A stretch of DNA of 64,000 nucleotides from Craspedostauros australis (GCA_030167865.1 JALAGF010005628.1:1-64000); one strand, 5' to 3'. Shown: positions 9,550 through 62,234, counted from the first letter of the stretch. Made by a program: numbers and translations. The notes: generated by a model not told the origin, from the sequence alone.

Positions 9550-12500
9550 TTATCGTCGGTCACCGCTGGGTGGCTTTCGGCTATCTGAAAACCCGCCAGG
9601 TTTTAAGATGATGAGCTGCACGCTGACATCTTGGACGACGATCTCGCCGCTTCGGAAGCGCTGCATGGCAAGGTCGGCCGACTTGCTGTTCTTGAAGCGG
9701 ATCAGACCGCAGCCTTTGCCATTGGAGGCGACAGCGGCCTCGTAGATCTCACCGAACTGCTGGAACGTCCTCGTCATGATGTCGGCCGTTGCTGTTTTTC
9801 GCATGCCGGTCACAATCAACGTCGTCACTGGAATATCTGTGGCCAGCTGCAAGCCGAGGATCGCAGCGCATTCGTGGATGGCGCGAGATGCGTCGTCCGG
9901 ACCAAGCACACCATGGCGGACGCTTGCGACCATCTTGTTCAACGTGCCTTGCATGAACAGCCGCCTGGTGTGCGAGTATTCGGAGGAGTGACAGTATCAT
10001 GGCCATTGTCATCGTTACGGGGAGAATGCAATACATGATGGTACGAGTGTTCACGAACGCGTGCAACAAGAAGCAGAGGCGAAACAAAGCAAATGCGTTT
10101 GGTGAGTGAATGTCTCGCAACGAGTGCAACGAACGGGCAAAAACTAATGCACACCAACACGCAGTCTTTCTCTTCGTTGCGACCCCCCTTTTGCACGTGC
10201 GAACATATCGAGAGTACTCGCGGGCGATAACCACGACAATTCCAATAGACACACGCCACGCGATTGCACATACCTCTCTTCAACCGTGGTATCTTCTTTG
10301 CGCTTCAACCAGTCCGTCACCTCTCCCAAAACTATGGCTTCAATCTCGATACCACTCATGGCCGATCGTCCGAATTTCGATCCGCTTCCTCCACTACCAG
10401 CAAAGAAGGACTCGCTGCCGGATGGATCTGTCGCACCATTCAGTATGAAAGAAGACGAGGCTGTCGTCGTGGAGTTGGTGGCGGAGGTGTAGTAGAAGGA
10501 ATCATCATAATGATCATCGATGAGGGCCTTCGTCATGGCCTTGCTCATCATACCATCGAAGCCGGCGAGGTTGCCTTCGACGTCCTTCCTCATCTTTTCC
10601 ATGTTTTGATCCTTGTACTGATCGAACTCGTCGGCGAGGTTGTGGGTAGCATCCGCCTCATCGTCTCCGGAATCTCCTTCCATGGCGCCGCCGGCAGAAA
10701 GCAGTGACTGGCTTGAAACCAAGGATTCGCTTGGAGAGATGATGCCGGAATTGCGATCGTTGAGGCGATTGGCCGGCGTGATGAGGTTGTGATCGTGATG
10801 CATGCCGGTGGTGTAGTACTCATCTTCGTTGGCACCGTAAAGCGAGACGGGCCCTGGGCGAAGCTGCAACGGTGGCTGCCCCTGCAGGCCGGGTATCTTG
10901 GAACCAGGAATCCCATGAGGGTGACCATTGGTGCCACGGTCGTTTCCGTATGCTCCGCGATCTGGGAGCTGGCTGCGCTCGGATCTGGGAGCGTCTAGCG
11001 ATTGGTATTGCCCGTCCTTCCCCATCCTTGGCTTGCCAACGTCGTTGCCGACCTTGTCATGCCCATTCGCGCTTCCGTGAAGTGCGTTGCTTTGGAATTG
11101 TTGCTCGCGACGTCGTTTGCGGCGGCGGTAGCAGATCAGCAGGACGACAAGGAGGATAGCACCCACGACAACAGCGACTACCACGACGACAGTGTTGCTG
11201 CTGCTTGAAGTCGGTGGTGGCGGTGGGATTTCGGTAGGCTCGGAAGAGTCTGATTCTGAAGGCGACGTGCTTGGCCACTGGCTCTTCATCCGGGTTGGTA
11301 GACCTGTCGCTTCCACCGGCATGGTCGTGGGGATGCGTGATGGCATGGACGATGGCAGCGTGCTCGGTCTCGCTGAGGGCTCGAACGAGGTTGTTGGGCG
11401 CTCGCTCGGCTGCACTGTTGGCTTCTGGGACAGGGTCGGTTGGAGTGTTGGCGCGTTCTGGAATCTTCGTGCAGGCTGGACTTCGGTGACGTTGAGCCCC
11501 AGTGCGCTGAGATCCTCTGCGATGCGGTCCAGGTTGTCGTTGATGAAGGATTGGAAGAGGTCTGGGAAGTCAGTCACATCAACATGCAGCGACTTGTAGG
11601 ACATGATGAAATCAACCTCGTTTGCAAAATTGCCCGCCAGCGCCCGTTGGTTCTGAACGCCACTTGCGATCTGCATATCTTCTCCATCGCCCGCACTGCT
11701 GTCGAAATCGATGTCATCGTCATCGTTGGAGGCATCATCAAAATCTCCAAGTATGTCATCTGAAGGATCTATGCGATCCTTGGGGTGGTAGTAGGAGAAT
11801 GGGCCATGTTCATGTTCGTCTTCCAGCTGATTGGTCTCATCGGTTTGATCGTCATGGTCTCCTGTTGAAAGGATCTCATCGGAATTCGTGTATTCACTTG
11901 GATCATGGAAATATTGACTTTGCTGTCGCTGCTGCTGTTCCTTGTGGCGGTGATCGTGACTGCGGAGGTATCTCCCGCGCTGTTGCTGTTGTCGTTGCCT
12001 GCGTTGTGTTCGTCGACGTTGTCCAAGGATAGTTTGAAAGTCGATCTCACATGTCACGTTGACTCGTCCGACGAGTGTCGCGCCTTCCGGAGTTAGTATG
12101 GGTTCAGTTGCGTTCCCATCTTCATCGACAGGAAGGTCAAAGCCCGTGAATTCGAAGGTGTAGCGTTGGTATAGCGTCTCAAATCTGATCTCTTCTTCCT
12201 GATCGAATTTGCGCCCAACCAGGACAGCGAAGCTCTGGCGGAATTTTTGCTGCGACTCGATGATCACCTCGAATGTGGGTTGAATCGTGGGATTCTGTGA
12301 CGGTTCCTGCGATGGCTCGGCCGACGGTGACAAAGATGGTTCCATGGACACGCTTGGTACCGAGGACGGGGCCGGGCTTGGTGCGACGGATGGCTCAATT
12401 GACAAGGACGGTTGATGCGAAGGAACAGCTGACTGGGTGGGATGGACCGACGGGGCGAGCGATTGAGTGGGAAGAGAACTTGGCAGGAGACTCGGCGAGG

Positions 12501-15533: not shown

Positions 15534-18066
15534 TTACAGTCCCTTTGCGATCTGCGAGTGAATCCCTTGCAACAGAAATCCTTCCATCGCTGTGGCTGTT
15601 CTTGGCAACGAGGATGGGATCCTTCCCAGCCCTCCGGATTGGCTGCCGTGACTTGACATCTTCGCCGACGCAAGGCCCAGAGACGATGACGATGACAGCC
15701 CAAGCTTGCTCGCGCTCTTTCCTCCTCCGCTGCTGCTGCGACTGAAATCCCCGCTCTGCATGAGATGGATGCGAGGTCGGCTGGGCTTGCCCAGGTTGTC
15801 GAAGGTGGCATTCTTCTTGGCGCTCGTCGCCCATTCCCCATTTTGATCCTCCTGCGCTTGCATCGGCTTGGGGTGATTCATCAGACGGCCAGTGCGTCCC
15901 CATATCGGCTTGTGCGAACCAAAGTCTCCGAACGTGGCGTTGCGCGGACCGGATCCAAAGTCACCCGCGTGCGGTCTTCCGAATGATTTGAAACTTGCCA
16001 GCTGCGCGGTTGTCTGCGCCACTCTTTGCCTCTTCGCTGTTGGCAGCGATGGGCCCTTGATCTTGGGGATGATGCCGTGCTCCCACTGGATGGATCGGGT
16101 TTTGCGAATCTTGTCCAATGCCGCAGCGCCCATCTGTGCGTTGTTGCCGCCTTCCTTGTTGCCAGCAGCGCCAGCTTGCATCGCCGCCTTCAGCCGAAGT
16201 GCTGAAGGCTTGGCCTTGGCCAGACGATGGTTCGGTTCGTGCGGTCCGCTGGGAACCTTTGATCCAAGCGTTGACCCCAGCGGCGATGACAGCTTCAGCG
16301 AGCTCGAGAAGCCAGAAGAAAGGGCGGAACTGGACTTGCTACTTCCCAGCCGGCTCGAGATGGATCCCATGGGGTCGCTGGACTCGCTTTTGCCCGATGA
16401 TTCCTTGAGAGCGATGGCCTTCTCCACAGCCTTGAGCACGACGAGTCTGGCCTGCTGGATCATGGAAGTTAACAACGCGCCTGCGTCGAGCCGAATGTCG
16501 ACCTTGGTCAATGCGACAGGATTGGCACCCTGGCTTCTGTTTGTGTTTGCTGTGGGGTGGAATCAGAGATGAGTACATGGTGCGTAGTGATATGAATCCA
16601 TAATCCATAGTTCATCCACCCAATGATTCATTCATTGCATGTCCCACAGAGTGAAGCGAATAGAGGGTTGTTGGTGACGGTGTCAGTGTTGGCAATGTCG
16701 ATAATGGTGTGGTGCGATTGTGTGATGATGAGAGCATGTTCAACGGTGTTGGGTGGCGGACAACAGTAGCCAAGTAGCATGGCACGGCAGAGCAGCAATG
16801 GTGCGGGCGATCGTATGATAGAACGAGTGGTAACAGCACATGCACAATTGCAGGGGGTGAGAAAACAGGATGCAGAAACCGGCGTATCGACGGCACCTTT
16901 AATCTTCAATCCAGAACGGAGGAACTAGGACCCACGCACTCGGTGTCAATGAGTGTTTGTACTCATTTGTCCGTGCACTTGGCCGCACTCAAACATGGAC
17001 ATGCGGATGAATGCAGCACAGCACACAGCACCGCATACAACACGACTTGTAAACAGAAGTGCCTTGCTGCGCATGCGTATGTGGGGGAACCGAATAGCGA
17101 CTTACCTGCAATTGTTCCTGGTGCTCGCAAAGATACAGTCTCGGTCTTATCTTGGATGGACAAGCCAATCTTGACTTCCAGAAGCAATGGGAGGATGACG
17201 TCCGCCTCCTTCGGCTTCTCTTTCGCGGATTCTGGGAGGCTGAGGGCCTTGAAGTTGGTGGTTGTCGACTCTAGTTTGATCGTCGAGAAGAGCATCCTGA
17301 GCAGGTTGGATCGATCTGTTGGATTCTCAGACGTCACGGAGTGGCGCAGCAGTAGCACGGTCCACGTTTGCACTCTGGAGTCGATGAGGTACGAGAATGA
17401 TTCCGAAACGTTGTTGGCAATCGCATCGGAGGCGTAGAGCAAGGATGACTTCGTCCAGGACGTCAACGATCCCAGATTCTGCGCCGCGCTCTTGTCGACC
17501 TGAGCTGCCCGCGTTCTCGCATTCGCAACCGTTGTGATGAAGGAAGCTTCCATCTGAGGAATCTGCTCGTCGTCCTTGGCTTCCCCACTGGCTGGCTTTT
17601 TGGCGCTCTCACCTGGAGCGGAGGTGGGTGCTGATGCGCCTGGCAGGGAAGCAGGTGATGGCTTCGGGTCAGCTCCCGCGGCCACGCTCGGCGTTTCCTG
17701 TCCGCCAGGTGCGATTGCGCCTGTCGCCGTGGCAGTCGGTGCAGCGCTGGCGGCAGCGGCATTGGATGCAGGGGCATTGTCACCGGCGCCATCCGGCGTG
17801 ACGTCCATCTTCATGTGGTGCTCCCCGACCTTCGGCAGGATGCTTTCGCCAGAGTCGTCGTCGATCTTCCGGGCATCCAGCGAGGGCACCGTGCAGACTA
17901 CATCATGGTTCTGGATCTGTTTGGAAAAGCAGGCGAGCAGCTCCCGTGAACTCCATGAGGAAGCTGAGCGGGACGATGATGACGTAGTCAAGAATCGTGC
18001 ATCGGGGCGTTTGTTGCTCAGGAGGCTCGCGAACTTGGTGACGAGCTGTTCGTCTTCCGGATTCAT
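15534..18066 (-). CDS. Hypothetical protein, ~658 aa, ordered central domain flanked by S/A/G-rich disorder
   Basis: join(18066..17106, 16549..15534). Donor CAG|GTAAG and acceptor CCACAG| give a phase-1 in-frame join (APGTIAANTNR...LTKVDIRLDAGALLTSMIQQARLVV). Coding-like codon use; no family recognised. Confidence 0.75.
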
Positions 18067-19876: not shown

Positions 19877-22708
19877 ATGAGCGAGCGAAGACGCAGCTCC
19901 GGCGGTGGATCGTCGCACGGTGGACCCCCGTCCTCCGACCGACATGGCGGCTACAGCCGTCGTGGCTCGCCCAGCGGCGGCGGATCGCCACGCGAACGCG
20001 GAGGAGGCTACGGCGACAGCAGATCCCGCAGCAGACACGACGAGCGTTCGAGACGGCATGAGAGGGGTTCCCGGGGCGGACGATCGGACCATGACAACCG
20101 CCGAGACGACCGCGCGGCTGTGGATCGTCCGGACAGCAACGGCAACCAGTGGAAGCGATTCCGATCGGATGACGACGAGCGCGATTTCGAAGAGGACCGT
20201 CGCAGGAAGCGCCAAACAAGGCAGTCCAAGTTTGATGTGGAGCCTACCGCAGAGCAGTTGGCCGCGGATGCGGCAGTGTCCAACCGTGCTGGCTCCGGTT
20301 CTGCACCTGCCGATACCTCAGGCGCTCCGCCAGACAGGAACCCGGCTGCGAACCTCCAGCACACGCGCCATGCCCGTCGCTTGTACATCGGCCACATCCC
20401 GGCCGATATCAACGATCAGGAGGTGCGACCCTTCTTCAGGGCGTCAATCGAGAAGGCATTGGAGCCGCCCGCCACCCTGCAGGAGGATCCGATTATGTCG
20501 GTCTATGTCAACCCACAGCGCCGATTCTGCTTTTTGGAATTCAGAACTGTCGAGATGGCAACGGCGTGTCTCGCGATGGATGGGATCAACATGAACGGAA
20601 AGGGCAAGCTCCGCGTTCGAAGACCCAACGATTACAACCCATCCATGGCACCCAAGGTGGATCCCGCCAACCTCCCGAAGCTCGACATTCATAAACTCGG
20701 AATCGTCAACGGATCCGTTCAGGATGGTCCGAACAAGGTCTTTGTTGGAGGTAAGTGCCTGCTTCGAATGCATCGTTGTCATCGTATGATTTGGGCTGTA
20801 TTTGTATTGTGCTCGTGTGGCTGTGTGGTCGTTTCCTTGTTTGGTCGCGTACTACTCGTACGTCGCGATGTCATGCGTGCTCTCCTTTCATTCATTGGGT
20901 TGTACACGGGGTGTGAGATGTTTGTGACATGCGGTGTGTTGATTGCCAGCAATGGTTGGGCAATGATCTACGTACTGTACAGTGTCGCATCCACATGCAT
21001 CACCCCACCTGGACGCTATGAACGCAAACAAGCACAAACCGACGGCGCTATCACAGCCAACGAGTATGCTGCATTGCGGAGCTGTGCACTCTACTCTACT
21101 TTACTCTGCTGCTCTCTCCAGAGGATTCTGCATGTATTCACCATGCTCGCAAGACATGGTGCAAGGCAATGACCATGCGCATGCTTATGCACACGCAGTG
21201 CAAGTCTTTCATCTGTCTCTCGCACGCTACCTTTTGTTTTCACCTGCGCAATACTCACCACTTGTCAAACATTCCACGTATCGCACGCCGCGCATCACTC
21301 ATACTGACACAATCATTTCAATCACCATTCCAACAACGTTTGCACCATGCATTGGTATCTTGTTGTGACGTTTCGCTGTTACACGTTTGCGTTACGCAAT
21401 TGCACAGGCCTTCACTACCACATGACCGAACCCCAAGTGCTTGAGATGCTCCAGACCTTCGGCCGAGTGAAGTCGTTCCACTTGGTCAAGAGCGAACCGG
21501 AGTCCCCAACCAGCAAAGGGTTTTGCTTCTTGGAGTATGAGGACACCAACGTCACCAAGGTCGCTGTGGAAGGCCTCAACGGCATGGATCTGGGCGGTGG
21601 CAAGATCATCACCGCCAGGGTCGCCACGCAAAGAGGAGCTCCGCCACCAGCACCAACGACAGTCCCCACGAGCGTCCCTGCTCCCGTCCACACTGGCACA
21701 GCGCCAATGATCATCGGTGGCTTCGAAATCGACAACCTTCTGGACGCCGCCATGGGCAAGTGCCCCATGCCAACCGCGCCCACTCACATGGATGCCAACG
21801 GGCTTCCGATCACACGCACTGGGACCTTCGTCGCGCTGCCGGGTGCACCGATGTCCACTGACAATGTGTCCGTGCCACCTCCACCGCCCCCGCCGCCAGC
21901 AGGGTCTGGCATAATGGCGGGCAAGTCGCCCTTGGACATTGCCAATGCCGCACTGGACGCCGCCTTCGGATCGGCCCCGGCTGCGGGCGCACCGGCAGCA
22001 GGTACAGTGCCACCGCCGCCTCCGCCACCACCTGCCTCGACCGGTCCAACAAGAATCTTGGTCCTCCACAACATGGTGATAGACGAAGATCTCTCAACTG
22101 ATGACGAGTACGAAGGCCTAAAGGAGGAGGTGGAAGGGGAGTGTGCCAAAGTCGGAAAGTTGCTGGGGATGAAGATCCCCCGGGTGGCCAATGAGAATGT
22201 GCAACCAAGCGCCATCAAGAAGGTCTTCTTGGAGTACGCAACAGTGCAGGATGCCACCACAGCAGAGAAGGAGCTCGGGGGCAGACAGTTTGGTTCCAAT
22301 GTGGTGAAGGTGAGTCGCACAAGTATTGGCGGTTCCATGCTTTTGCACGTACGCGAGGATGACGTGCGATATCATGCATCACATGATCTTGTATTTTGGG
22401 GCTTGGCGCGATAGCGTGGCAGTGCCTTCACATCCTACTGCTACTACTGCAAGGAGTACAACGATGGCTGCGATGTATGCCTGTCAAGTTGGGAGTGTCG
22501 TCTGATGTGGATGGGCGCTTGTGTCGTCCGATCGTTCGTTCGCCCGAGAGAGTGTGATGGAATGTCCTGGTCACCGGCCACACCGGCACTAACACTGAAC
22601 GATACGCTCTGTCCACATGTTTTCTCTTGGCAAATTTTGTCTCACATTTTGACGACACAGACGAGCTACTTGCCGGAAGAAGCATACAGCGCAGGAAAGC
22701 TCCAGTAG
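19877..22708 (+). CDS. U2AF2: Splicing factor U2AF large subunit (RS domain, RRM1, RRM2, UHM), 607 aa
   Basis: join(19877..20750, 21408..22309, 22661..22708). Motifs RQSKFDV (ULM-like), TRHARRLYIGHIP, LRVRRPNDYNP, DGPNKVFVGGL, SKGFCFLEY, TRILVLHNMV..EDL..DDEY, LGGRQFG. All junctions GT-AG and in frame. Confidence 0.95.
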
Positions 22709-24589: not shown

Positions 24590-26906
24590 ATGCTAAGCAC
24601 AGACATGGATCCACCATCAACTTCATCATCATCATCAGCAGCAGCAGCATCCGTCGACAACCACAGCAGCAACCACAACAGCAACGAGACAGACACAGCG
24701 ATGGAGTCAAAGTCAGACACTGCGCCACCCCTGCGGCCTGCCGGGACTGTCAAGACATTGAGGTTCGCAACGCCGGAACCTGTCTGGAGACGACCACGGT
24801 CGGAAAGCGCACCTGCGGAATCGGCCATGCAGATGACATCGAACGCCCCCGCTCCCTTGCAATCGGGCAACAGCATGACCACAAGCAAGAGCATGAACAA
24901 CATGAGTGCCAGAACCAACAACACCGGCAACAGCAGCAGCAGCAACAACAGGAACAACTCCAACAACAACAATGGAAACGACATCGGATCGATCGTGACA
25001 AAGTCAAAGAAAGCAGCAGCTTCCATCTTTACTTTGTTGCATGCCAAGGTGAGGTAATCAGGTTGAAAGGATGGGGTACGGATGCAGCATACTCCACGAG
25101 TTTGCCGCATGAGTATTCCGCACCTACGTACGAGGAAAGCAATGCGGGTCAGCAGCCGACAGAGAACACGCTGGTGGAGAATGAAAGCCGATCGGAAAAG
25201 ATGAAGAGAGAGGAGAGAGAGACAGGCGATGAAGGAGCGGGTGCAAACGAGGGATCATGATCAGTCCTCCTGACCTCCGAACGACGTGACTGGTCCGTGG
25301 GAATTGATCGTGTGCTTGTCTGATCTTCTCTGATGGAGCACATGGCCTCCAAGCAATCTCTCGATGGACGCCTCTGGTGGATGCACGCAAAGCAGATCGC
25401 TCCAGGACCTTGCTTCTCACTCAATTTGATCTGCTGACTATCGAATATTTACGTGATTCTGCGATGCCATCATGCTACTACCATGCTCTGCCATCATGCT
25501 GTGATATTGCGACGCCTTGATCTTGTCTTCTGGCCTTTGCTTCTGGCTATTACTTGCACACTTGTGATTTCGTGACTCTTCATGTTGTGCTGTGGCAAAC
25601 GAATGAATGAACGAACGAACGAATGAATGAACGAATGGTCCCCGGATCCGCACGTGCGTATGTACTCGCACTCCAACACTTTCTCCAAACGAATCTGCAG
25701 AGCTGCCGACTGGGTCCGTACCAATGCCAGCACAGGGGCTGTGCACAGGCCAAGCTCACCTACCTCCATCTCAAGACATGCTCAGCCAACGGCACCCACA
25801 ATGCCTGCCCAACCAACTACCGAGGATGCGGTGACGCCCGGAAACTCCTGGCTCACTACCGACGATGCCGCGAGATTCGTGCCCGCCAGGCAGGCCAGCA
25901 GACGAGGATAAAAAAGGAGCATCTCTGTCTGGTCTGCACCTTCGTGGCCAGGCAGGCACGTGGCCAGCTCGATCGCAACCCCACCAGCGGCGGCAGTGGC
26001 AACACCGCAGGCAATGCGAGCAGCGGCGGCGGTGTGCGAAGCGGCGTGGCTGCTCGGAAGTCCAATACCAAGCACGTCTACAACACGTACTCCATCAACA
26101 GCGACAAGAAACTCGCCGTGTCCCTGGCCACCCACAGAATCTCAAGGAACACCTGCTCGATGGCGGGCAACGATGGTGGAGAACGTCGCATCCTGGCCTC
26201 CTTCCGCATCGTGGATGATGGCAGCAACGTCGTCAACAAGCGACCGCATGGGAACCACACTCCGCCCAACACGCCTCACATGATGCCGCCTCCCCCACCA
26301 CGCTTCCCAACTCAAAACCACCGCTCCCTCGACATGCCGGACATGTCCATGCGGCAAGCCCAGGAGCAGGAGACGAAGGATGAGGACAGCGCCATGGCGC
26401 TCTGCATGCTCGGCAACGCATCTTCGTCATCATCTTCGCTGGCATCAGTGTCGGCGTCTCCATCGCCCTTGACCGTCCCGGCAAAGCAGCGATCGCAGTC
26501 GCAATCGCCGTTGCAGCAGAACAACAGCCATTTGCAGGACAGCCAGGACAGCGCCATGGCTCTCTGCATGCTGGGCACCGGCGTCGGCGGCGCATCGTCC
26601 AAGCGGCGAACGCGACCACGTGCGGAGAGCCTCGACGTCCGTTCGAGCACAGCGAAGGCATCGTCGCAGTTCGTGTCAACCAACCCCCAGCAATCCTTGC
26701 TCGGTCAGCTCGTTGTCAGCCTGGAACCTCAGATCGAGGAGGAGATGGTGGAAGCGGAGCAACGTCAATCCTCACCGCAACGACGCATGCGCAGCGCATC
26801 CTGCAGCGTAATCAGAACGTCCACGAAGCCCATGGAGCCATTCAATCCTGCGATTGAAGGGTCCTTCGCCGAACCATTGTCCGAGTCCTTGGATCGTTTT
26901 GGTTGA
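24590..26906 (+). CDS. Stand-alone TAZ-type zinc finger protein (~554 aa)
   Basis: join(24590..25048, 25701..26906) gives LLHAKSC...CQHRGCAQAK...HLKTC...CPTNYRGC..ARKLLAHYRRC...CLVC, the three H-x3-C...C...C sites of TAZ fingers. The rest is low complexity. Confidence 0.82.
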
Positions 26907-27592
26907 GCAGAGAGCATGCAGCCAAGCAGTCGGGGAGGCAGACACGCAATCAGGCAGACAGGCAGGCAGCCAAGCAGTCAGATATGCATTGAGTAAATGG
27001 GCGAGAGAAACAAGGGGATTCAATCCTCACGGACCAACCATACGAAATCCAATAAGCATTCAGGCATTGGAACGTGGTGTGCGGGGAGCATCCTGATTTC
27101 ATCAAAGCGAGACGGAGCACGGATCAAACATATTTCGGGAATGTAAATATTGCAAACTAACAAGCGCTATCATACTAGTGTCACATCATGCTTGCGTTGT
27201 ATTATATCTATGAACAATCCAGTCACGCAGTATTGTTCTGCGAGTATGCGTTGTGTTGGTCTAGAGAAGCTTGCTCTTCCTTCCACCCCGCTGCCAGTGC
27301 CTTCACCCTTCAACTTACTCGTGCATGAGTTGGGTAGCCGATGGGAGGCCTTGCGATTGCTCTCATGGCGCAAATGCCATGGCGTATCATACGAGTACGT
27401 TCGTGGAGTGTACCACCGGAGGTCAATTGCAATCCTTCGGTTTGCGATCATTGGCAGGCACAGCGATCCACTCCACTCAACTCCGGAGCTATGTGGCGAG
27501 TAGCATCACAGTGCGGATCGTATGGTACCATTCGGATACGCTTACTCTACGGCATGTCACCATCAATGACAAATTGCGAGCATTCCTTGGGA

Positions 27593-29059
27593 TTAGAAGG
27601 AATGATGGTGTGGCTCGTGCGGGCTCAGGACGACACCGTCCTGAAACTCAATGGTGCGGAAATGGAAATCGGACTCCACCGCTTCCCACCACTTGAAGTT
27701 GCACATTGTCGAGACCCGCCTTGGCATCGTGTACAAGGTGTCGCCGTTGTCGTTCTGGACGTTGGCATCCAACCGATAGTCGTACACCAAGGTCTGGACG
27801 ATCTGCGTGACGTCTTCCACGCCGAGTTCTACGCGGCTGACCTTTGCCTGGATCATTTTGGACTTGATGTCCGCGACGGTGATGCCGTTGCCATTGTTGA
27901 GACGTCTGACGCACATCATGATGAAGGTTCTGAGTTCGGAGATGAACTCGTGATCGAACTCAAGGCCGCTGTACCATACACCGCCGGTGAGCTCCTTGGA
28001 TGGGACGAGGTTGTAGAGCATGTAGAGCTTCTTGGCCTTCGCGTTGACCGATTTGACCGGCTTGATGAGCTGGCGCTGTTCGAGATGCTTGAATATCTTG
28101 TTGAGGGCCTGCTGCTGGATGTTGGTCTGCATCCGGATCTCCTTGGTCCAGATGCCCATGTTGCCTGCCTTTTCGATGACTTGAAGCACCATGCGTTCCG
28201 ACACATCCAGGCCATGGTACTTTGCGGCGACGTCCTTCGAAACGAGCGTGTAGTAGAGCTCGGCGCCCATCTTGCTCATCGTCAGTCTCGACTCGCGCAG
28301 CAACTCACTTGGTGACGTACGAGCATGGTGGCGTTTTGCGAACATTGGAATTCGTGGTACAGGTATTGCAACGCATGATTCAACATGGCATTTGATGGGG
28401 GGACACATTCGTCGTGACATGTTGACAGGTTGGCATGGATTGGAGTGGATCGAAGCAGATGTGAGAATTGTGGAAGGGTCATCCAGCAGTGTGTGTTTCC
28501 TGTATGGTATAATGGAATAGGTGTCTGCAGCACTTGCTCGCTTCGCCCGAGTGCAAAACTAAAGCTCTGTACCCTTGGCGCAAGTCACTAGCGTTCGTGT
28601 GTTAGTACTCGTAGAGCATCCTGATTAACCACTTCAAACGTGGCATAATTTCACAGGAACTCAATGTAATGCAACACAATGCAATGCAGCACATTGCAAC
28701 TCAATGCAGCGCGAAACTGCGCGAAACGACACAAACATGCCGCATTCCTGAACGTACTTGATGACCAACGCCAGCTGCTCGAAATCTGTCTTGTTGGGGA
28801 AGTGTTCCTTGAGCTTGGTGCTGGATATACCTGACTTGTGCTGCGCAGTTTGGAACAGGGCGATGAATCGGTCCCTGAGCACCTCCTTGGACTGCGGCTG
28901 ATTGCGCCTCGTGGACGCTGAAATCGACCCGCCCGAACCTGGCTCGATCTTGATGCCCACGCCCCTTGCCTTCTTGCGTGGCTGCGATGTCCCTCCCGAC
29001 GCTGATTTGTGTGTCGGCAGCGCCTTGCCACTGCGTGCTCGTTTCTGAGGTCGGTTCAT
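27593..29059 (-). CDS. POLR3F: RNA polymerase III subunit RPC6 (C34/RPC39), 338 aa
   Basis: join(29059..28758, 28307..27593) gives LALVINELLRESRL. Winged-helix motifs VLQVIEKAGNMGIWTKEIR, LIKPVKSV..KAKKLYMLYNLVPSKELTGGVWY and EFDHEFI. Confidence 0.93.
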
Positions 29060-40200: not shown

Positions 40201-40420
40201 GTATCGCCCTGCCTCATTTCGTGGTGGTAACTTGATACACACTTGCTCGACATTGATCGATCAATTCGACACCACACGACACGAACAGACGCAACCAACC
40301 TTGCCGCTGGGACCACCAAATGGGACTCCGGTGCCTTCTGCCATTCCACCATCATCGTCATTGCCGCCGTGGAATCCAGCCCCGTCGATCCCGCAAGCGC
40401 ACATCAAGTCAGAGTCATGA
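37287..40420 (+). CDS. TALE-class homeodomain protein with C-terminal RING finger (~783 aa)
   Basis: join(37287..37772, 38137..39870, 40289..40420). Homeodomain LKAWLLSPEHFTHPYPT...QLKNWFTNARRRIWKP; RING CALC...PCGHMFHEKC...CPVD. The third exon is inferred from GAG|GTGAGT at 39871 and a 246-nt AG-free zone; if unspliced, the CDS ends at 39882. Confidence 0.85.
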
Positions 40421-43355: not shown

Positions 43356-44961
43356 TCATTGAATGTTGCACATGGACGGCCGATTGGGGCTGGTCAAATC
43401 CTGCGGGCCCAGAATGTCTCCGCACATGAGCATGCTGCCGTCGCATGTTTTTTGCACGTCCGCGCTGTCCGTCGATTCCGCGAACTTGGGACCCTCCGTG
43501 ATGTCATCGTCATCGTCGCCGCAATCAATTGCAGCCTTCGCGCCGTCCCCATTCATCATGCTCTTCATACCCGGTGATCCGCCAGCTTGCATCATTCCCG
43601 TTGTAGCCATCCCTGCAGTATCCACCCCGACCTCCGCAGGCGAGCTAAACGGCGGCGGATTGGGTTGGTCGCTGGAGTTCGGAGGAGATTGACCATTCGT
43701 GCCTGATGGTGATGATGGCGAACCGTTCATTCCTGCTCTTGACTTGGGACTGCGCTGGTGTATCTGAGAATGGTGCCGATTGCTGTTCCTGTCAGTTGAA
43801 GCAAGACCCAACGACTGACCGTCTTGGTGACCTTCTGCGTACGACCCTCCTTGTCTCCGACGTTGAACTTGTCCATCATTCGATTGGGCTGTAAACGTTG
43901 ACGGTAGTTGGAGGCCATCGTTCCGCTGCTGATGCAACAGGACTCGCTGCGCGATCCGCTCGAACAGGCATGAGACGTTGTGATTCTGCTTCGCAGAAGT
44001 TTTTAGGAACATGGCGCCGATTTTGTCTGCCAGCTCCTCCGCGGCTCGGACATCGATCATGTCCGCATCGACCAGATCACATTTCGTGGCGCACATCGCG
44101 ATGACGAGGTCATCGCATGATGCATTTTGCTGCAATTCATGTATCCAGTACTTGAGAGTTTGGAATGACGGCGGTGATGTGCAGTCGTAGCAAACAATCG
44201 CAGCTGCGGCGCTGCGGTAATACATGGGAGCGATCTTCTTAAATTGCTCCTGACCCGCGGTGTCCCAGATCTGAATCTTGCACGTGACGCCATGCACCGT
44301 CAATCTCTTCGTGATGAAGTTGGCCCCTACCGTTGCGCTGCGCCCGGCGTCTCTGTAATACCCCTCGGTGAACCTCAGCACAAGCGACGTCTTGCCAGCG
44401 AAGGTGTCGCCCAGCATGACGACCTGTGAGTATCATCAATCCATCAGCGATGGTACATACGTTGTTTCATACGTTGTTTCATTCGTTGTTTCATTCGTTG
44501 TTTCATCCAACGGCGTTCAATTCCATTCCATTCGATTCAGTTCGATGGGAGTTGGGTGCGATTTGAAATATAGTGGAGTATGACATATTCATTGTACCAC
44601 AAGGTGAATGATGTAGAGCATGGCACCACACAAGCACGTGGATGAGAACCGAAGTGGTGCAAAAGGACAATCAAGCAGACAATGGCGGTGAGGAGAAACT
44701 TGCAAATAGCCACAAGCAATGCATCTTATCACAACATGGGCACTATCGTCGTCAATGCCAGCGTCTTGTGTATGTCGAATTCTCGTGGTTCATGTGTTGT
44801 ACACTTGCATGTTGCTGTGCAGCATGATCAGTGTCCATCAGCAAGAAGAAGAACAAGAGCAGCAGCACGACCAATGCAACTGACATGGAGTGAACTTGGT
44901 TCGATCGGCATGGTTATTTGCGCACCTTGAATTCGGCCTGAGGAAGCTCGACGTGCGGCAT
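43356..44961 (-). CDS. Rab GTPase, Rab5/21/22-like, with long C-terminal extension (367 aa)
   Basis: join(44961..44926, 44423..43356) gives MPHVELPQAEFKVVMLGDTFAGKTSL. G2 ATVGANF, G3 IWDTAGQE, Rab5-family APMYYRSAAAAIVCYD, G4 TKCD, G5 TSAK; ends MCNIQ. Confidence 0.9.
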
Positions 44962-45969: not shown

Positions 45970-48900
45970 CTATCCAAAGGCCTCATCCATATTATCCTCG
46001 TTCTTGTGCTTGCTCTTCTTGGTGGCGTAAGACTTTGTCGTCGTCTTCATGAGTCGATCGAACACATTCTGCTTGGCATATTCATTCACTTTCGCAAATT
46101 CTGGACCTTGATTTGCGGATCTTGCGTCCGCGTCCTTGTCATCCAGGATGCCATCCAGCATCTCTTCGGCGATGTTCTTGTGCTGCTTCGGTGCGTACGC
46201 CTGTGTGGTCGTCTTCGTCAGTCGTTCAAAGACATTCAGCTGGATGTAATCATTCCGCTTCTTGCGGTTGCTCGGCGACGTGCGGTCCTTGCGATCATCC
46301 GCGCGCTCCCTGTCTTTGCTTGTCGTCGCAATCGACGAAGCAGGTGCCGCATCTGTCAGGGGTTTGCGATGTTGCGACGATTTGCGAATCGGCGTCTTCG
46401 CAGTGTGCGAGACTGGGGCCGATCTGTGGCTGTCGGTAGCCTCGTGGGCAGTCACGCTCGTGCCGCCCGGCGTCGGATGTGACTTCAAATGGCTCTGCCG
46501 TTCCATGCTGCGGCTGGTGTCATCCTCGCTTCCAAATTCAGACCCTGATGACGGGGAGCCAGATCGGCGGGAGTTTGAATTACGATCGACCAACTTCTGC
46601 TTCTGCACCCCCGTGAAACGTTTTGGGTCACTCAGCCGATCGAAGACGTTGCTGCGCTGTGTCGGCTGCGGGTTGGCAAAGTTAATCTCCTTGCTCATCA
46701 GCTTCGTCGCATCGTCTTGCATCAAAGAAGAAGGCATCTTGCCTTGCGCGATGACTGCTAAATCGGCCATGATCTCATCCGCCCATGCTGGATCATCGCT
46801 CTCATCATCCTCGCTGTCGCATGAATCGATGTCCAGAATGCTCTGTGTGAGCGACGCTGTTTTTGTTTCGAGCTTCCGCGGCACATAAGTCGACCCGGGG
46901 TCGGGATGTGTTTGCAACTGTGCCTGCTGTCGCAGTTGGGTCAGCCCATTCAAGGCAATGGATTTGATGGTCTCTGTGGTGACTTTCATGGTTCCTGCCG
47001 CTGCCCCCTCGCCTCCGCTCGCTGCACCAGCGCCACCCCCATGGACAGCGTGCTCTTCCTTGGTGGCACCCGTCCTCTCAATCTCCGCAAGGATGCGCTC
47101 AAGCGCGACTGTCGATCTGTTGCTTTCATCGTCTCCATCATCGCCTCGTCTCCCCTCGTGGAGCTGAATACCACCGACGCCAGATTTCGCCAGAGTCGTT
47201 TCGGATTGCAACGACCGCTTGCTGTCCTCCAATTCTTCAACTTGACGCTCCAATGTCACGATCCTCTCGTTGGCAAGGATCAGCATTTTGGGATCGGGCA
47301 CGTACGCTCCAGCATGGCCTTTACGTGCTTGCTGCATGTCGCCAGTGAGGACCGCACCGGTCTGGCTGGTCCTCATATCGCTTTCACCATCAAGCCCAGT
47401 GCCTGCATTCGTGTCGGAACTTTGAATGTCGACACCGTTTGCCTGTGCACTGTGAGATTTGTCTTGCACCATCTCCATCAATGACAAAATATGCTCCTGA
47501 TGAGTCTGAATGAGACCAGTGATCTCCTCCTGCTTCTCTTGCGTGAATGTTCGGAATGCAATCTCCTTGCTTCGCACCGTGGAATCAGCCTCTTGAACGC
47601 GTTCATCGAGCTTTGAGGCCGTCCTCGCCAGCTTGGTCACTCGACGTCTTTCCCGAACCACCATGCCAAACAAAACCTTGACTGCATTTCTTGCTGCAAT
47701 GATTGGATCTGGCCCTGCAGTTCATGCATGTATCGTGCATCGTATGGCGTATATCATGTAGCACACCGTGTGGAATGATTGGACAACACCACGGGCAGTG
47801 CACAGCCGCAAAGCATGTTGCATTGGGATGTATGGTACGAGTAGTTGTATCTCAATGTCGTCCAGAGCATTGGGAAAGAAGAAATAAGTCGATGTTAGAC
47901 GTGCATGAGCATGGTACGGTATGAGCACACAGTCCGAGCCCTCACGACGTCTTCATTGGTTGCACTCAGAAGACATGTACACCATGAACTCCTTGCCACA
48001 CGACACATGCGAAAGGTCAAACGGCACGCACCTCTGCAAAGTTCCTTGAATTTAGAATCGAACAGGAACGAATTCTGCTCCGCCCTGGTGTCTTCCTCCG
48101 CAACTCTTCTCCCCAACCGCGATGCGAGCTGCCGGATCCGTTCCTCCTTGGATTGAATTTGTGACTCGATGGAGAAAATCTCCTCCTCGCAAGCACTGCC
48201 CTGATCATCGCGATCCAGCAACTCGACTTTTCTGGTGGACAGTTCGAGATGGTCTTCCCATTCGTGGGCCAACTTTTCTGCCAGCGCCTCTCGTTTGCTG
48301 ACGGTGGAGACTTTGCCATCAAAGAATTCACGCAACGCACTTGCATCCAGCGTCGCCGTGCGTTCTGCCCGGTTCGACATCGGTCTACCTCTCCGGGTCC
48401 TCGACGATTGTTCCCGACGACCGGTCAGAACATGATCAAAGCCTGCGTGTCGCATGACTCCCGTTTTCACGGTTTGCAGCCGCAACTTCTTCTCGACCTC
48501 TTTGTTGCGCGCCTTGAGCAGACTCAACTGCTCCAGCCTCGTCTTTGCGACCTTCTTGGCCTTCTGCGCGTCCTGTGCATTGTCCTCTGACTTTTTCTCC
48601 AGCTTCGACATTTGCCTGTCCTTTTGGATCGATTCCTTCTTCAGTTTATTCATCTCTTGCGCGTGGAGTTTCCTCTCGTCGGTGATCTGTTTTTGCAGCA
48701 AAATCTTCTTGCGCTTCATGTCAATCACGTCCTTGCGGAGCCTTGTTATTTGGGATTGGTTCCTCGATACAACCGATGTTAATTTCGTGAGATCCCGCTG
48801 CTTTCGTTTGAGCTCTGCAATCTGAGTCTGCTTTTCCTTCAGTTTATGTTGCATGGCCTTGGACATTTCATGGTCCGAACCCATCTGCCTCAGCTCGTCT

Positions 48901-51091
48901 GCCAGTTTCTCACTTTCGAGCTCCTTGTTATGCAGCAAGCCGCCCATTTCTTGCAACTTTGACTCGTAGAAGAGTCGCATTGCCTGACGCCACCGACGAA
49001 CACACAGAGATGAAGCGAGAAGCCGTTCATTCGAGAGAGACAGGTGGTGCAGATGCGCCATTTCCAACGCAAGTCATGTCGACAAACAATGGGATAAAAT
49101 TGCAGTGTTTTGCAGCGTGTGAGTCATCATCCTGAGCTGCGCTCGTAGAACGAATAGCGCTCCGACTGTGCTGCGCATCAGCATGCTGATAAATGCCCGC
49201 AGTGTACTCACCTCATACTTATCATGGCTGGCCTGGAGCTTCTCAATCAATTCTTCCTTGACCACGATCGAGGTTGAAAGCTCGTACAGATCTACCTCCA
49301 GTTGCTGCTGATTTTGCGAAAATTCCTTCGCTTCCAGATCGCTGATGGGTGATGATCCCAAGCCAGAGTCTTCTCGTGCACCATCGGCCACAGAGTCGCC
49401 ATCGTCGTTGCGCAAGTACTTCTTCGTCAGTACCATCTCCGCCTCCTCCGCTGCGCTGACTTCGGCATCGATCTGCTCACTTTGCGACATGCTGCCATGC
49501 ATTTGTGCCTTCAGCCGACTGAGTTCCGGAGATTCGGATCGATGCTTCGATCCAGACGATTTGCGTTCCAGCGGCGTCTTTGGCGGCAGGCGCGCCATCG
49601 CAAGACCAGATACTTGTTGATCTGACATTCCCGAGAGCCCAGATCGAACAGAGACGTCCGGGCTTGGCGAATTTGAATATCGGTATCGCTGCAAGCCCCG
49701 GAGGGTCATCTTCAAGTCCGCGATTTCACGTTCGTATTCCGCCGCACGCCGTCGGAAGACCTCTTGGACGGCTGAACCGGTGCTGTTGTCATCGCCATTG
49801 TTGCTTGAACCAGGCATGGTGCTATCGCCATTAGCCCGTGTCGATAAAGCTTCAAGCTGAAGCCTGTACACTTCCTTCTCCGCTTCCAGCGCACATATCC
49901 TTTCTTTCGATTCATCCGAAAGCGTCGATCTATACTCGGACCTCAGCCCCGCGTGTGACATCAACGGACTGTGTGGGTAGCGGGATGGTGACTGCTTATC
50001 GCCTGGGATGAATGCGTTGTGGACTCTTGGATCGGCCCTCCTGTTGCTCCGTCCAGCGCCAGTCATAATACTGGGACTACCACCCGCATTGGTATCCGCC
50101 CCCGCGCCTGCACCTGCGGCAGCCCTGTCGCCCTTGGCGAGGCTCTCCACTGCTTCCAATGGTATTTGGTAGTCTCCGTCGCCTTTGCGGACTCGCAGCA
50201 CGTCACGCGCGAGGCTCTGAAGTTGACCTTGGAGCTCTTGGACCAGCCGTGTCGTGGCATCCACGTTGACCACGGCATGGTTCTGAATATTCTTCGCCCT
50301 GTTGGCATAGCGGAGGCAGTTTAACGTCTCTTCCATGTTTAAATTGGACGGCGAGGCGCAGGCGATCATGAGCGTTTTATGGTTGCCTCCCAACGACCCC
50401 TTCAACAACCTCGTGAGCTTCGAGTCTCTGTACGGCACGAACGTCTTGCCCACGCGGTTCGGATCCCCCAAGGCCGATATCACATTCCCCAAAACCAAGA
50501 GTCCTTTGTTGATATCGATGCCTTCCTTCAGGCGCTGGCCGGACGCTTGCGTTCTCTTCTGACGTTCGGAACCTGCCAGGTCAACGAAGTTGAATTTTGA
50601 TCTCTTGGTCTGCATGTGCTGCGATTTCTCTCCCGGCGTGCCCACGGTTGGTGTGGCCGGCACCCCATTTTCCTTGTCGGAATCTTGGATGACAGTCGAC
50701 TGTTCGATGAGGAGCGACAATATGGCATGCGATCGGGAAGATGTTTCATTCATTGCTGTTGCGCCTGTGACTCTTCTGAGCATCCCGCGAGTCAAGCACA
50801 AGAGTGCGTCGTCGGCAGATTTGACTGGATGCTTCGTGGCACCGAGCACTTCCGGCTCATCCATGCCGACATCCCGGATAGTGAGTTTGTGATTCTTGGA
50901 CGATGAAGTCGCTGTGGATAGCAAATCTCGTATCTCCTCGCCGTACACCTCCAGAAATTGGATCTTCACCTGGTACTCAAAATTGGGCGTGACGTCGTCG
51001 CTGTCTGCGTTCTGATTCAAGGTTGACCCTCGATCTGGATTCTGATCATCTCGCCCATTTTCGCCGGTGAGATTGCTACTGGTACTGGTAC

Positions 51092-51133
<42 letters not shown>

Positions 51134-51710
51134 CGTCGTCGTCATCGTCTGCAAATAACCTTCTTCGTTCAGCATCAATGTTCGTGCTGTCGTGAGTTTC
51201 GAGGCTGTCGGCCTTGTGGCTGCCATTCGTTGCAGAGTTCTTCTGCGCTTTCCAGACCCCCAGCGTGTGAAAGATGGTTCGAATTGCCCGTGGGATGACC
51301 CCTTGGTGGATCTCATCTTGCACAATCCCCGTCGAGGAAGACGGTCCCATGATGGTATGCGTCTTGCCCGATCCGGTCTGCCCGTACGCAAGGCATGTGG
51401 CATTGTATCCCTCCAAGCAGTTATCCACGAGAGGCTGCACCCTGGTCGCAAAGAACTGAAGCTGGCTGATCTTCGCATCGAAGGCCTGGTCGAAGGTGAA
51501 TTTGGGTCCGTTCTGTCCTCCTATGCAGACCACGTTCGGCGGGACGGTGCTGGACGATGATCGGATCTGGATGCAGCTCGTCGATCCTGTTTCGTGGCGC
51601 AGCATGGGACGCAGCCTGACCACAACCTGGACGCTCGAGCCGGGCGATGGATTCTGCGATGGTTGTTCATTGTCGCTCTTTGTGGCCATGGCAGAACCGC
51701 TTGTGTGCAT
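45970..51710 (-). CDS. Kinesin-4 family motor (KIF4/KIF21-like), ~1731 aa
   Basis: join(51710..49212, 48983..48032, 47714..45970), all in frame. P-loop YGQTGSGKTHT, SSRSHA, FVDLAGSER, LKEGIDINKGLLVLGNVISALGD, VPYRDSKLTRLL, LRYANRAKNI, followed by long coiled coil. Alternative ATG at 51689. Confidence 0.93.
51093..51131 (-). repeat. (AAC)13 microsatellite encoding poly-Asn within the kinesin motor domain
   Basis: Perfect GTT run on the + strand, flanked by a GTC/ATC run encoding poly-Asp. Confidence 0.9.
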
Positions 51711-59900: not shown

Positions 59901-62234
59901 GAGCAAGCTTCGAGCTCCATGGATCCGAACTTGTCCTTGAGGTTGAGCTCGGAGGATCCGGATGGATCGAAGGTGAGCACCTGGAGGGGCTGGCTTCCCG
60001 TGGAAGAANNNNNNNNNNNNNNNNNNNNNNNNNNNNNNNNNNNNNNNNNNNNNNNNNNCTGGAGGGGCTGGCTTCCCGTGGAAGAAAGAGTGCAAGTGAC
60101 GCTGCTTGGAAGCTGGATGTTGGGCATGGAGGATGAGACGATGAACGTCTCTCCTGCGCCGATCGGTCCGCTGGTGGTTGTGAGGGGCATCTGGTTGCTT
60201 GCATCGACACAGCTCACCACCATCTCACTGACGGTGGTGATGTCGCCTGGCTCGCTGCACACGGATGGCGGCATGGGTTGGGTGTTGACGCTGTCGCCGC
60301 ATGGTGATGGAACGAACTTGAAGCGAGTCTCGGAGATGCTGTCGCCGTCGGAGCACTGGGCAGGGGCCTCAGTGATCTCCATGCAGTCGCGACCGTTCTC
60401 GTCGGTGCATGTGATGTCGACATCGACGCGACATGCCACAGCAATGTCGAAGGTGAATGTTTCGTCATCCTGGCATGTCGGGCCGAACGGTGGGTCGGCT
60501 TCGACACGGACGTTGGTTGTGTATGTGGCGCCCATGCACACGTCCACCACATCGGGTTCGTTGATCTGTACTTGGTCTCTCACTCCGATGGTCTTGTTTT
60601 GGATCAATCCGAAGAGGCTCTCTTCAGCACCGCCGCGCTCGCGGAAGAACAGCGTGACCTCCATGGGAACTTCGCCGATGTTTCTCAAGAAGTACGAGTA
60701 GCTGATGTCGACGAGGCAGTTTCTCTCATCGCCACCGACATCACATGATTCCAGCTGCAGCATTCCGTACTTGTCCTTGAGGTAGAGATCCATGTTGCCG
60801 CTTGTGTCGATGGAGAAGTTCTGGATTTCGTCCCCTCCGCTTGTCACTTCGCAGATGGTTGCAGTTGGCAAAACGGTCACGCCATCTCCAATGGTGATGC
60901 GATCTCCCACGACGACATTTGTTGCAGGCAGGATCGTGGTTGTGGATGAATCGAAGCAGGTGATGGTCATGGTGGTTCCTGGTTGTGGCATCGTTCCGGT
61001 GTCCTCGCAGAAGGCATCGAGGGGTGTCATTCCGTCGTTGGCAAACATGTACTGAGTGTTGAGACTGTCGTTGCATGTTCCGCCTGTGACGACGAAGGAG
61101 AGTTCGGTGATTGGCTGTCCGGTTGAGCATTGTCCGTCTGGTGATTGCAGGTCTTCGCATGGGATTCCGCCGGCTGCGTTGCAATCAATGATTGCCTGGT
61201 GTGCGCGAATGTGCATGTTCCATTTCGATGAGAATCACGCGTTTGACAGATCACGGGAATGTAAAAACAAAAGGGTCAGTCGGTTTGCTCTCCTCCAACA
61301 ATTGTGCGCCTGCTGTGTTGGTGTGGTGATGCCTCTTCAATCTTGTACCATACATGCATCGAGTTGCAGGGACGCAGTGAGAGCAAGAACTTACCTCCAC
61401 AAGGCATTCACCGGGCTCGGTTGGTGTTTGCGAGGGCATCACGGATGGAAGGCTGGATGGGCGTGCGGAGGGGTTGCTCGATGGATTTTCAGAGGGAGTT
61501 GTTGATGGGGTTGGTGACGGTTGGTCGCTTGGCGTGGCACTTGGAGGAGTGCTGGGGGTGCTGGAAGGCGGTTCACTCGGAGTGACTGACGGGGTTTTCG
61601 AGGGAGTTGCCGAAGGCGTGGCCGATGGCGGCACGCTTGGTAGGCTCGAAGGATCCACTGAAGGTGTCGCCGATGGTGTTGTTGATGGTGTTGTTGACGG
61701 TGTCGCCGATGGTGTTGTTGATGGTGTTGTTGACGGTGTTGTTGACGGTGTTGTTGACGGTGTTGTTGACGGTGTCGTTGACGGTGTCGTTGATGGTGTC
61801 GTTGATGGTGTCGTTGATGGTGTCGCCGAAGGTGTTTTTGAGGGTGTCTCCGAAGGAGTGGCCGATGGTGGCACACTTGGATTGCTCGAAGGTTTGACTG
61901 AAGGCGTCGATGACGGCGGTTCACTCGGGGTGTCGGACGGTTTCGTTGAAGGTCTTGCCGACGGAACGGGTGATGGCATATCCGAAGGTTTGGTAGACGG
62001 CCTTGCAGAAGGCGTCGCAGATGGCGGAACCGACGGCTCCTCGGAAACGATGACGCTCTCACCGACTTCCTCCATTAGCCTTGCGTAAAACTCTTCATCC
62101 TCGACGTCGACACCAAGGTTGTCTCCAACATCGCCACGAGGCTGCGCGACCACTGTCAGAATATCAGTTCTGCAACAAGACAGCACGACTGTCGTGACGA
62201 GGAAGGGAACGAGGCCCTGTGTGCGCAACCTCAT
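53903..62234 (-). CDS. Giant secreted protein (~2700 aa): signal peptide, PS/PT repeats, five Cys-rich modules, ~1000-aa PSASPSAT array
   Basis: join(62234..61395, 61195..53903). GAG|GTAAG ... CACCAG| gives GECLVEAIIDC. Signal MRLRTQGLVPFLVTTVVLSCC. Module signature L(K/L)DxF/YGxx(Q/E/D)L/F occurs five times. No TM segment. Contains two N gaps. Confidence 0.85.
55620..58800 (-). repeat. Coding minisatellite with 12-bp subunit / 24-bp unit (PSAS-PSAT and variants PSAM, PSIM, PSTT, PSVS)
   Basis: About 3.1 kb continuous periodic array, interrupted by a 50-N gap at 56163-56212, so the true length is uncertain. Confidence 0.95.
61660..61830 (-). repeat. 12-bp coding tandem repeat (PSTT)n in exon 1 of the giant secreted protein
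   Basis: GGTGTYGTTGAY units on the + strand. Confidence 0.9.

Follow-up and report, generated by a model that had tools for sequence, protein, structure and literature searches.

The window analysed here, that is, the whole 64-kb stretch JALAGF010005628.1:1-64000 of Craspedostauros australis, contains a sample of twelve GT..AG introns, and the subject of this work is the long zone free of the dinucleotide AG that precedes the acceptor of each of them. The DNA is eukaryotic nuclear DNA of the pennate diatom type, has a G+C content of 53.8% and is poor in TA. An open reading frame (ORF) at 27593-28558 on the minus strand encodes the RNA polymerase III subunit Rpc34/RPC6, and its best matches, at 60-77% identity, were proteins of Phaeodactylum, Seminavis, Fragilaria and Cylindrotheca together with many environmental sequences. 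Pfam analysis of the window identified genes for RRM proteins, a TAZ zinc-finger protein, Rpc34, a Mei2-like protein, a homeobox-RING protein, a SRAP protein, a Rab GTPase and a kinesin, as well as a very long repeat protein. Transcript contigs were taken from the assembled contigs of a public run, X1, which was presumed, as a guess, to be RNA. Sixteen of them aligned to 18.9 kb of the window and covered 15 of the 30 bins of that region; the eight pieces listed, which come from seven of the 16, span approximately 3.8 kb, and the results given for X1 hold among the contigs listed, of the 16 aligned. Metagenome contigs were scanned with an Rpc34 alignment, which gave 41 related loci totalling 178.6 kb. 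These loci belong to environmental diatoms, the closest of which has 75% Rpc34 identity.

The introns are found on both strands. On the plus strand, the intron at 20751..21407 (657 nt) has its AG-free zone at 21205..21405 (201 nt), that at 22310..22660 (351 nt) at 22553..22658 (106 nt), that of the TAZ gene at 25049..25700 (652 nt) at 25406..25698 (293 nt), that of the homeobox-RING gene at 37773..38136 (364 nt) at 38012..38134 (123 nt), and that at 39871..40288 (418 nt) at 40041..40286 (246 nt). The minus strand introns are located at 9965..10273 (309 nt, zone 10113..9967, 147 nt), 16550..17105 (556 nt, zone 16896..16552, 345 nt), 28308..28757 in the Rpc34/RPC6 gene (450 nt, zone 28499..28310, 190 nt), 44424..44925 in the Rab-type GTPase gene (502 nt, zone 44698..44426, 273 nt), 48984..49211 and 47715..48031 in the kinesin gene (228 nt, zone 49131..48986, 146 nt; 317 nt, zone 47850..47717, 134 nt), and 61196..61394 (199 nt, zone 61287..61198, 90 nt). 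The original prediction had given the same twelve AG-free lengths; these were reproduced exactly, all twelve introns start with GT and end with AG at its coordinates, and its claim that every intron is built in this way was borne out for all introns recognisable in the window. No further introns were found in the window by ORF structure, Pfam or homology, a search whose reach does not extend to introns in untranslated regions. A gap at 51190-51020 in the alignment of the kinesin motor domain was considered as an extra intron lacking an AG-free zone, and proved to be an in-frame poly-Asp/poly-Asn insertion. This insertion (51020-51190, minus strand) consists of a DDDDDD run followed by 13 Asn and is absent from the homologues. 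Twelve unlisted AG-free runs of 91-169 nt were also inspected, and in none do a starting motif, a terminal CAG and a donor occur together; an unbroken transcript contig spans one of these unlisted runs, 27025-26890.

The AG-free length upstream of the acceptor ranged from 90 to 345 nt, being at least 90 nt in all twelve introns and at least 100 nt in 11 of them. In the pooled zones (2,294 nt) AG was counted 0 times, where approximately 96 were expected from the base composition of the zones, and GA was counted 112 times (observed/expected 1.15). The 5' parts of the same introns, which had been described as containing many AGs, did contain 136 in 2,613 nt (observed/expected 0.88). When the distance back from the 3' end was determined for each of the 16 dinucleotides, AG was the most excluded in 12 of 12 introns, while the other 15 recurred 0-173 nt from the intron 3' end, mostly at less than 60 nt. 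The second AG-free gap, upstream of the zone, measured 0-88 nt with a median of 9. Comparison with dinucleotide-shuffled introns had been named beforehand as a check on this depletion. Each intron body was shuffled in 2,000 dinucleotide-preserving trials, a conservative control since the already reduced AG count is retained, and the observed length was reached in 14 (intron 10273-9965), 0 (17105-16550), 11 (20751-21407), 30 (22310-22660), 0 (25049-25700), 0 (28757-28308), 130 (37773-38136), 0 (39871-40288), 0 (44925-44424), 0 (49211-48984), 71 (48031-47715) and 8 (61394-61196) trials. For no intron did more than 6.5% of the shuffles match the observed length, and for six introns not one of the 2,000 did. 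When both strands of the window were scanned without reference to annotation, intron zones accounted for six of the eight longest runs lacking AG; of the remaining two, one is poor in A and the other lies antisense to a coding repeat.

An artefact of strand composition, of low complexity or repeats, or of a choice of introns and acceptors favouring long AG-free runs could in principle produce such zones. Long runs without other dinucleotides do exist in the window (451 for TC, 383 for CC), and a cruder count of surprisingly long runs lacking a given dinucleotide was not unique to AG/CT, since CC, CG and TC were also high, mostly in coding repeats. Measuring how far downstream the next AG lies from CTCAC, or from permutations of that word, was likewise non-discriminating, other C-rich words lying within the same zones. 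The zones are poor in G (0.14-0.25), C exceeds G in all 12 of them and G equals or exceeds C in 10 of the 12 5' parts, although this C-over-G shift is partly a product of AG removal itself. Against an artefact stand the counts of GA and AG, which are made of the same two bases, the number of AGs expected from composition, and the shuffles, which oppose chance. Tandem repeats occupy only small parts of four zones, and seven of the 12 junctions are fixed without regard to AG content. An all-against-all BLASTN comparison of the twelve introns returned only matches of at most 35 nt with E values of at least 0.002, and neither the rest of the window nor any of the 41 related loci contained a match to them; as the introns share no sequence, their zones arose independently. 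The AG exclusion is real and AG-specific, and the artefact explanation, largely refuted by these counts, deserves very little credence. The repeats within the zones include one at 25598-25637 (GAAT-type) and one at 44456-44546 (a 12-mer in 4.2 copies), and in these GA is present, never AG.

The evidence for the seven junctions, which is blind to AG content, came from transcript contigs, homologues and conserved intron positions. Contigs of X1 join 9964 to 10274 and 22309 to 22661, the shorter side of the latter contig being 204 nt, and the transcript check that had been called for therefore matched the joints of introns 10273-9965 and 22310-22660. These are two of the six introns of the 18.9-kb region; the other four have no bridging contig, which is uninformative either way. 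In the Rpc34 gene, homologue P0002 loses no residue at the intron: its residues 3-86 align as far as 28760, and its residues 87-325 align beginning at 28309. The kinesin homologues P0137, P0148 and P0159 have no residues matching intron 49211-48984, and many database fragments begin at query residue 32, one past the first codon (residue 31) of the exon that follows this intron. The other kinesin intron, 48031-47715, is likewise skipped by full-length homologues; the alignment of P0125 puts residue 1037 at 48048, with residue 1042 following at 47715. The position of TAZ-gene intron 25049-25700 (LLHAK / xC[RK]LG, phase 0) is kept in seven other diatom contigs, and two contigs resembling complementary DNA already have its counterpart spliced out. 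The donor of intron 37773-38136 (..QE|GT) is conserved in the syntenic contigs L037 and L010.

Open frames are joined at all twelve junctions. Frames are open for 79/80 amino acids on either side of the junction of intron 17105-16550, where the transcript contigs end at 16543, barely inside the downstream exon, and for 80/80 amino acids at intron 61394-61196. They are also open on both sides of introns 39871-40288 and 20751-21407, and the exon that follows the latter starts at the beginning of a second RRM domain. The junction of intron 44925-44424, upstream of which exon 1 is MPHVELPQAEFK, is tightly constrained, as the Ras domain runs from profile position 2, at the acceptor, three residues past an in-frame stop.

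Branch points usually lie approximately 20-40 nt from the acceptor. In most of the introns a CTCAC, CTGAC or CTAAC motif had been reported near the far end of the AG-free zone; the positions given were right within 1-2 nt, and two more such motifs, at 21257 and 22592, were found. In a count of 5-mers in 70-nt windows at the zone starts, CTCAC ranked first of 487 words (p = 6.8e-8), followed by T-rich words. CTCAC occurs eight times, in eight introns, near the zone start, compared with twice in the remaining 3,911 nt of intron. Eleven of the 12 introns have a CT[CGA]AC motif whose adenosine falls within -8 to +52 nt of the zone start. Its distance from the acceptor, measured here and below from the motif adenosine to the last G of the intron, is 68-308 nt in these introns. 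CTCAC is the motif in intron 10273-9965 (10106..10102, A at 10103, 138 nt from the final G), 17105-16550 (A at 16858, 308 nt), 20751-21407 (A at 21257, 150 nt), 28757-28308 (A at 28462, 154 nt), 44925-44424 (A at 44689, 265 nt) and 49211-48984 (A at 49120, 136 nt). CTAAC is found in introns 22310-22660 (A at 22592, 68 nt) and 39871-40288 (A at 40074, 214 nt), and CTGAC in intron 61394-61196 (A at 61276, 80 nt). Two introns have a pair of motifs, CTCAC with its A at 25419 (281 nt) and CTGAC with its A at 25437 (263 nt) in 25049-25700, and CTGAC/CTCAC with adenosines at 38004/38008 (132/128 nt) in 37773-38136. In the twelfth, 48031-47715, there is no CT[CGA]AC within the zone, and the only candidate is a CTAAC with its A at 47895, 180 nt from the final G, followed by a T-rich tract and one GAG.

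All 12 donors are AG|GTRAGT-like and of the GT[AG][ACG]G type (GTAAGT, GTGAGT, GTACGT), and the acceptor is CAG in 11 introns and AAG in one, 28757-28308. The 50 nt after the motif are 61-65% pyrimidine, compared with 42-60% before it, without a long uninterrupted tract. The bases just before the acceptor had been described as A/C-rich rather than as a polypyrimidine tract, and the last 10 nt of the introns are indeed of this kind (A.24, C.41, G.19, T.16).

It is conceivable that the exclusion of AG is real and selected and that the branch points are nevertheless proximal, or multiple and degenerate. On that account CTCAC would be an enhancer or protein-binding site, and AG would be avoided over a long distance because any upstream AG can capture the 3' splice site machinery. 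Within their final 50 nt, seven of the 12 introns do contain some loose YTNAY, and three contain the strict CT[CGA]AC, at 16, 25 and 3 nt from the acceptor G, the last of which is too close to serve; the first two are the second CTCAC of intron 22310-22660 and a motif in intron 37773-38136. In five introns, moreover, the zone begins 33-52 nt upstream of the CT[CGA]AC, beyond chance expectation. Five of the 12 introns, 10273-9965 among them, lack even a loose YTNAY over that final stretch, which speaks against proximal branching, as does the sequence CTCAC itself, a textbook yUnAy branch sequence enriched at the zone start only. In known systems AGs upstream of a proximal branch are harmless, according to the available part of PMC1431707, and the loss of exactly the adenosine of a CTCAC from an unspliced contig, described below, would not be predicted. 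On balance we consider proximal branch points unlikely.

One difference was observed between the window and the listed X1 contigs, the omission of base 10103, and there were no substituted letters. Base 10103 is the A of the CTCAC at 10106..10102 on the minus strand, the predicted branch adenosine of intron 10273-9965, and the gap can be placed nowhere else, as the base is a lone T between Gs on the plus strand. The deletion is found in an unspliced contig, 9937-10262, which has a depth of 28.9 and ends 11 nt short of the donor; the spliced contig has a depth of 32.9 and is continuous from exon 1 over the joint 9964/10274. It is possible that reverse transcriptase skipped the branched nucleotide while copying a splicing intermediate made up of intron and 3' exon. 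For reads over the 2'-5' bond, the available part of PMC4315302 documents that branch nucleotides are misread and that deletions are among the errors; that the enzyme could also read along the main chain past the branched nucleotide is something we infer. Alternatively, the contig may represent an allele or strain that lacks the branch A and hence is unspliced. Both of these possibilities indicate 10103 as the branch. A third possibility is coincidence, of the order of one in several thousand covered positions.

Two of the twelve introns have usable orthologues among the related loci, in which the motif was searched as CT[ACG]A[CT]. The TAZ gene is present in 12 of the 41 loci, tail-to-tail with Rpc34, and the homeobox-RING gene in L037 and L010. 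The TAZ-gene intron, 652 nt here, is 93, 113, 88, 168, 80, 126 and 70 nt long in the other diatom contigs; its AG-free zone is 293 nt compared with 17-73 nt, and the distance from motif to acceptor is 281 or 263 nt compared with 19-52 nt where a plausible motif exists, the motif being absent in three. The homeobox-RING intron is 364 nt here versus 93 and 124 nt in L037 and L010, respectively, with an AG-free zone of 123 nt versus 71 and 51 nt and a motif-acceptor distance of 132 nt versus 28 and 37 nt. Since the orthologous introns are short and conventionally spaced, the long spacing is derived in this lineage and accompanies a four- to nine-fold increase in intron length, to which the segments upstream and downstream of the motif both contribute. 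The original prediction held that introns had lengthened between branch point and acceptor. That this segment is longer than in the orthologues was upheld, while confinement of the growth to that segment was not, as the donor-motif segment is also long (91-506 nt).

Conservation does not extend to the Rpc34 intron: the gene is intronless in most of the 41 loci, and in six it has introns elsewhere; these were excluded as evidence, as two in-frame AG candidates were left for most of them. No orthologue of intron 39871-40288 was found in L037 or L010, where the flanking coding sequence is of low complexity. An apparent 148-nt deletion between L008 and L010 was considered as an intron and discarded, having no GT-AG ends. 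The metagenome collection mixes genomic and transcript assemblies: L004 and L009 are spliced (LLHAK joined to NCRLG), while their relatives L007 and L010 keep the intron. Gene order is kept among diatoms in this region: in L037 the homeobox-RING and SRAP genes are both present, in the same order as in the window at 24562-42924.

Taken together, these features suggest an intron of two parts. The first would consist of a GTRAGT 5' splice site followed by a G-rich stretch with normal AG density. The second would begin at a predicted branch site, CTCAC or less often CTAAC or CTGAC, and continue through approximately 50 nt that are mildly rich in pyrimidine and T into an AG-free spacer with more C than G, ending in CAG. 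The CTCAC element, located 68-308 nt before the acceptor, would be the pairing partner of U2, and after lariat formation the spliceosome would take the first AG more than approximately 12 nt downstream of the branch. Any new AG in the spacer would then capture splicing and be removed by selection, leaving an AG-exclusion zone, and the lineage would have lengthened its introns on both sides of the branch with the first-AG rule retained. Both the role of the motif as branch site and a 5'-to-3' search for the acceptor are inferred here, and we regard it as probable, judging from sequence, that distant branch points and first-AG acceptor choice are the default in this species.

Several observations weigh against this interpretation. 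A default mode is proposed here on the basis of 12 introns from one 64-kb window, and the junctions of five of them (17105-16550, 20751-21407, 39871-40288, 44925-44424 and 61394-61196) are placed by sequence signals and open frames. The pyrimidine enrichment after the motif is weak, and the proximal motifs of introns 22310-22660 and 37773-38136 and the early zone starts of five introns have been described above; the true branch may sometimes be another, non-consensus site. The strict first-AG rule is broken in kinesin intron 48031-47715, where the CTAAC precedes the zone by 45 nt and a GAG intervenes. This single GAG splits a 224-nt AG-free stretch into 134 and 88 nt, and would be either a skipped first AG or a recent mutation. 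The earlier claim of first-AG choice as the default receives partial support, from the AG exclusion and from a motif in 11 of 12 introns, and fails in its strict form at this intron. The deletion at 10103 comes from one contig and has at least the three readings given. In addition, one aligned contig is 95-99% alike, so that unlisted differences may exist, and run X1 is only guessed to be RNA.

Two other classes of intron were considered and excluded. In U12-type introns the 5' splice site is rigid, [AG]TATCCTT, and the branch site, TCCTTAAC, is near the acceptor, and none of the 12 donors begins GTATCC. Introner-like elements were excluded as there is no similarity among the 12 introns. In trypanosomatid trans-splicing the first AG downstream of a polypyrimidine tract is used, at a variable and sometimes long distance. 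The first-AG-downstream logic is the same, but there a strong pyrimidine tract is the guide, whereas here the introns are cis-spliced GT-AG introns with a clear branch-like motif. Slu7 and Prp18 are second-step factors that allow distal acceptors to be used. The relation between RNA structure and branch-to-acceptor distance in yeast was reportedly treated by Meyer et al. in 2011. In Saccharomyces cerevisiae COF1, a long branch-to-acceptor distance is shortened in effect by RNA structure, as described in the available part of PMC3239191. Judged against that part of the source, the diatom introns resemble the yeast long-distance introns in that the acceptor would be picked after branching and the spacing is above the usual range, and differ in that there is no excess of spacer structure, distances extend to 308 nt, and the arrangement is the rule. 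Yeast Fyv6 is a further second-step factor, permitting distal acceptors (PMC11092753, in excerpt). Factors such as Fyv6 and Slu7/Prp18 are the type of machinery that sets the reach from branch to AG, and the window encodes none.

The closest parallel is an arrangement that is a rare exception in animals, that of mammalian exons (human and rat) preceded by an AG-exclusion zone and a distant branch point, such as PTB exon 11 (branch at -351), GABBR1 exon 23 (-275) and alpha-tropomyosin (Gooding et al. 2006, PMC1431707, in the part available). The same part of that paper reports a zone of at least 100 nt in 838 of 67,334 human introns, only a fraction of which have true distant branch points, typically at regulated exons, and states that AGs within 12-15 nt of the branch are bypassed. 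Measured against these excerpts, the diatom introns share an AG-free length of at least 100 nt, a normal AG content upstream, and a branch consensus at the 5' end of the zone, here with mildly pyrimidine-rich sequence after it. The acceptor is likewise the first AG downstream, and an AG near the branch appears to be bypassed, as in intron 37773-38136, where the AG that bounds the zone lies 2-6 nt past the motif. They differ from the human set, as far as it is described there, in that a zone of at least 100 nt is found in 11 of 12 introns of a random window, in ordinary genes that are not known as regulated exons, and in that the tract after the motif is only weakly pyrimidine-rich while the motif, CTCAC, is far more uniform. 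The mechanism is of a known kind; what would be new is to find it serving an entire population of introns by default. Searches of open-access text and bioRxiv found no paper on AG exclusion or branch points in diatoms, and no branch distances for Phaeodactylum were found in the available part of PMC3033335.

The segments between motif and acceptor were compared with 100 dinucleotide shuffles and showed no excess of structure, with a mean energy z of +0.66 that was above 0 in 10 of 12, and their exterior-loop distance was not below that of the shuffles. It could be proposed that the spacers are AG-free as binding sites for a regulatory protein or RNA, like the PTB sites located between distant branch points and regulated exons in animals, their length serving regulation, for example by intron retention, rather than reflecting neutral growth. 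In favour of this, the spacers fold slightly worse than shuffles, and human spacers do contain regulatory elements (PMC1431707, in excerpt). At intron 10273-9965 the unspliced contig is similar in depth to the spliced one, and another contig starts inside intron 20751-21407. No sequence is shared among the spacers, however, and no spacer word is enriched beyond the region adjacent to the motif; moreover, regulation of this kind would add to distant branching with first-AG choice and is no true alternative to it. We consider it improbable. The contig in intron 20751-21407 (21347-21632, depth 8) starts 60 nt inside the intron and continues into the next exon, and could be a case of intron retention, an internal start or a splicing intermediate.

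An extension of distant branching with first-AG choice is that a long-range search is normal for this spliceosome, exon ligation routinely reaching acceptors 70-300 nt away through unstructured, protein-poor spacers. Intron growth would then be tolerated because the spliceosome reaches distant acceptors, and a slow second step might let intron-3' exon intermediates accumulate; the unspliced contig 9937-10262, lacking the branch A and having an mRNA-like depth, could be such an intermediate. This extension is possible, and we put it forward with some doubt.

Elsewhere in the window, the ORF at 53903-61234 comprises 2,443 codons with five DUF7467 matches and PT repeats. It contains a tandem array of a 24-nt (8-residue) unit over approximately 3 kb (55740-58765, minus strand) with higher-order periods of 48, 72 and 180 nt, and is broken by three assembly gaps, with N at 56163-56212, 58886 and 60009-60058.

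Debate over the way in which the spliceosome locates the 3' AG once the branch has formed still draws on a few special animal and yeast introns, the candidates being linear scanning, distance-limited diffusion, and help from structure or second-step factors. If distant branching with first-AG choice is indeed the default here, this genome would hold hundreds or thousands of natural test cases, in which a uniform motif is separated from the acceptor by 70-300 nt that have neither structure nor a strong pyrimidine tract, and the usual spacing of 20-40 nt would be no hard mechanical limit of the spliceosome. Should long-range ligation also prove to be routine, the introns would provide a natural system in which linear scanning could be separated from diffusion-capture. 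Gene finders and branch-point predictors confined to the last 50 nt would mis-model this genome, and point mutations that create an AG across approximately 40-60% of each intron should disrupt splicing in this diatom.

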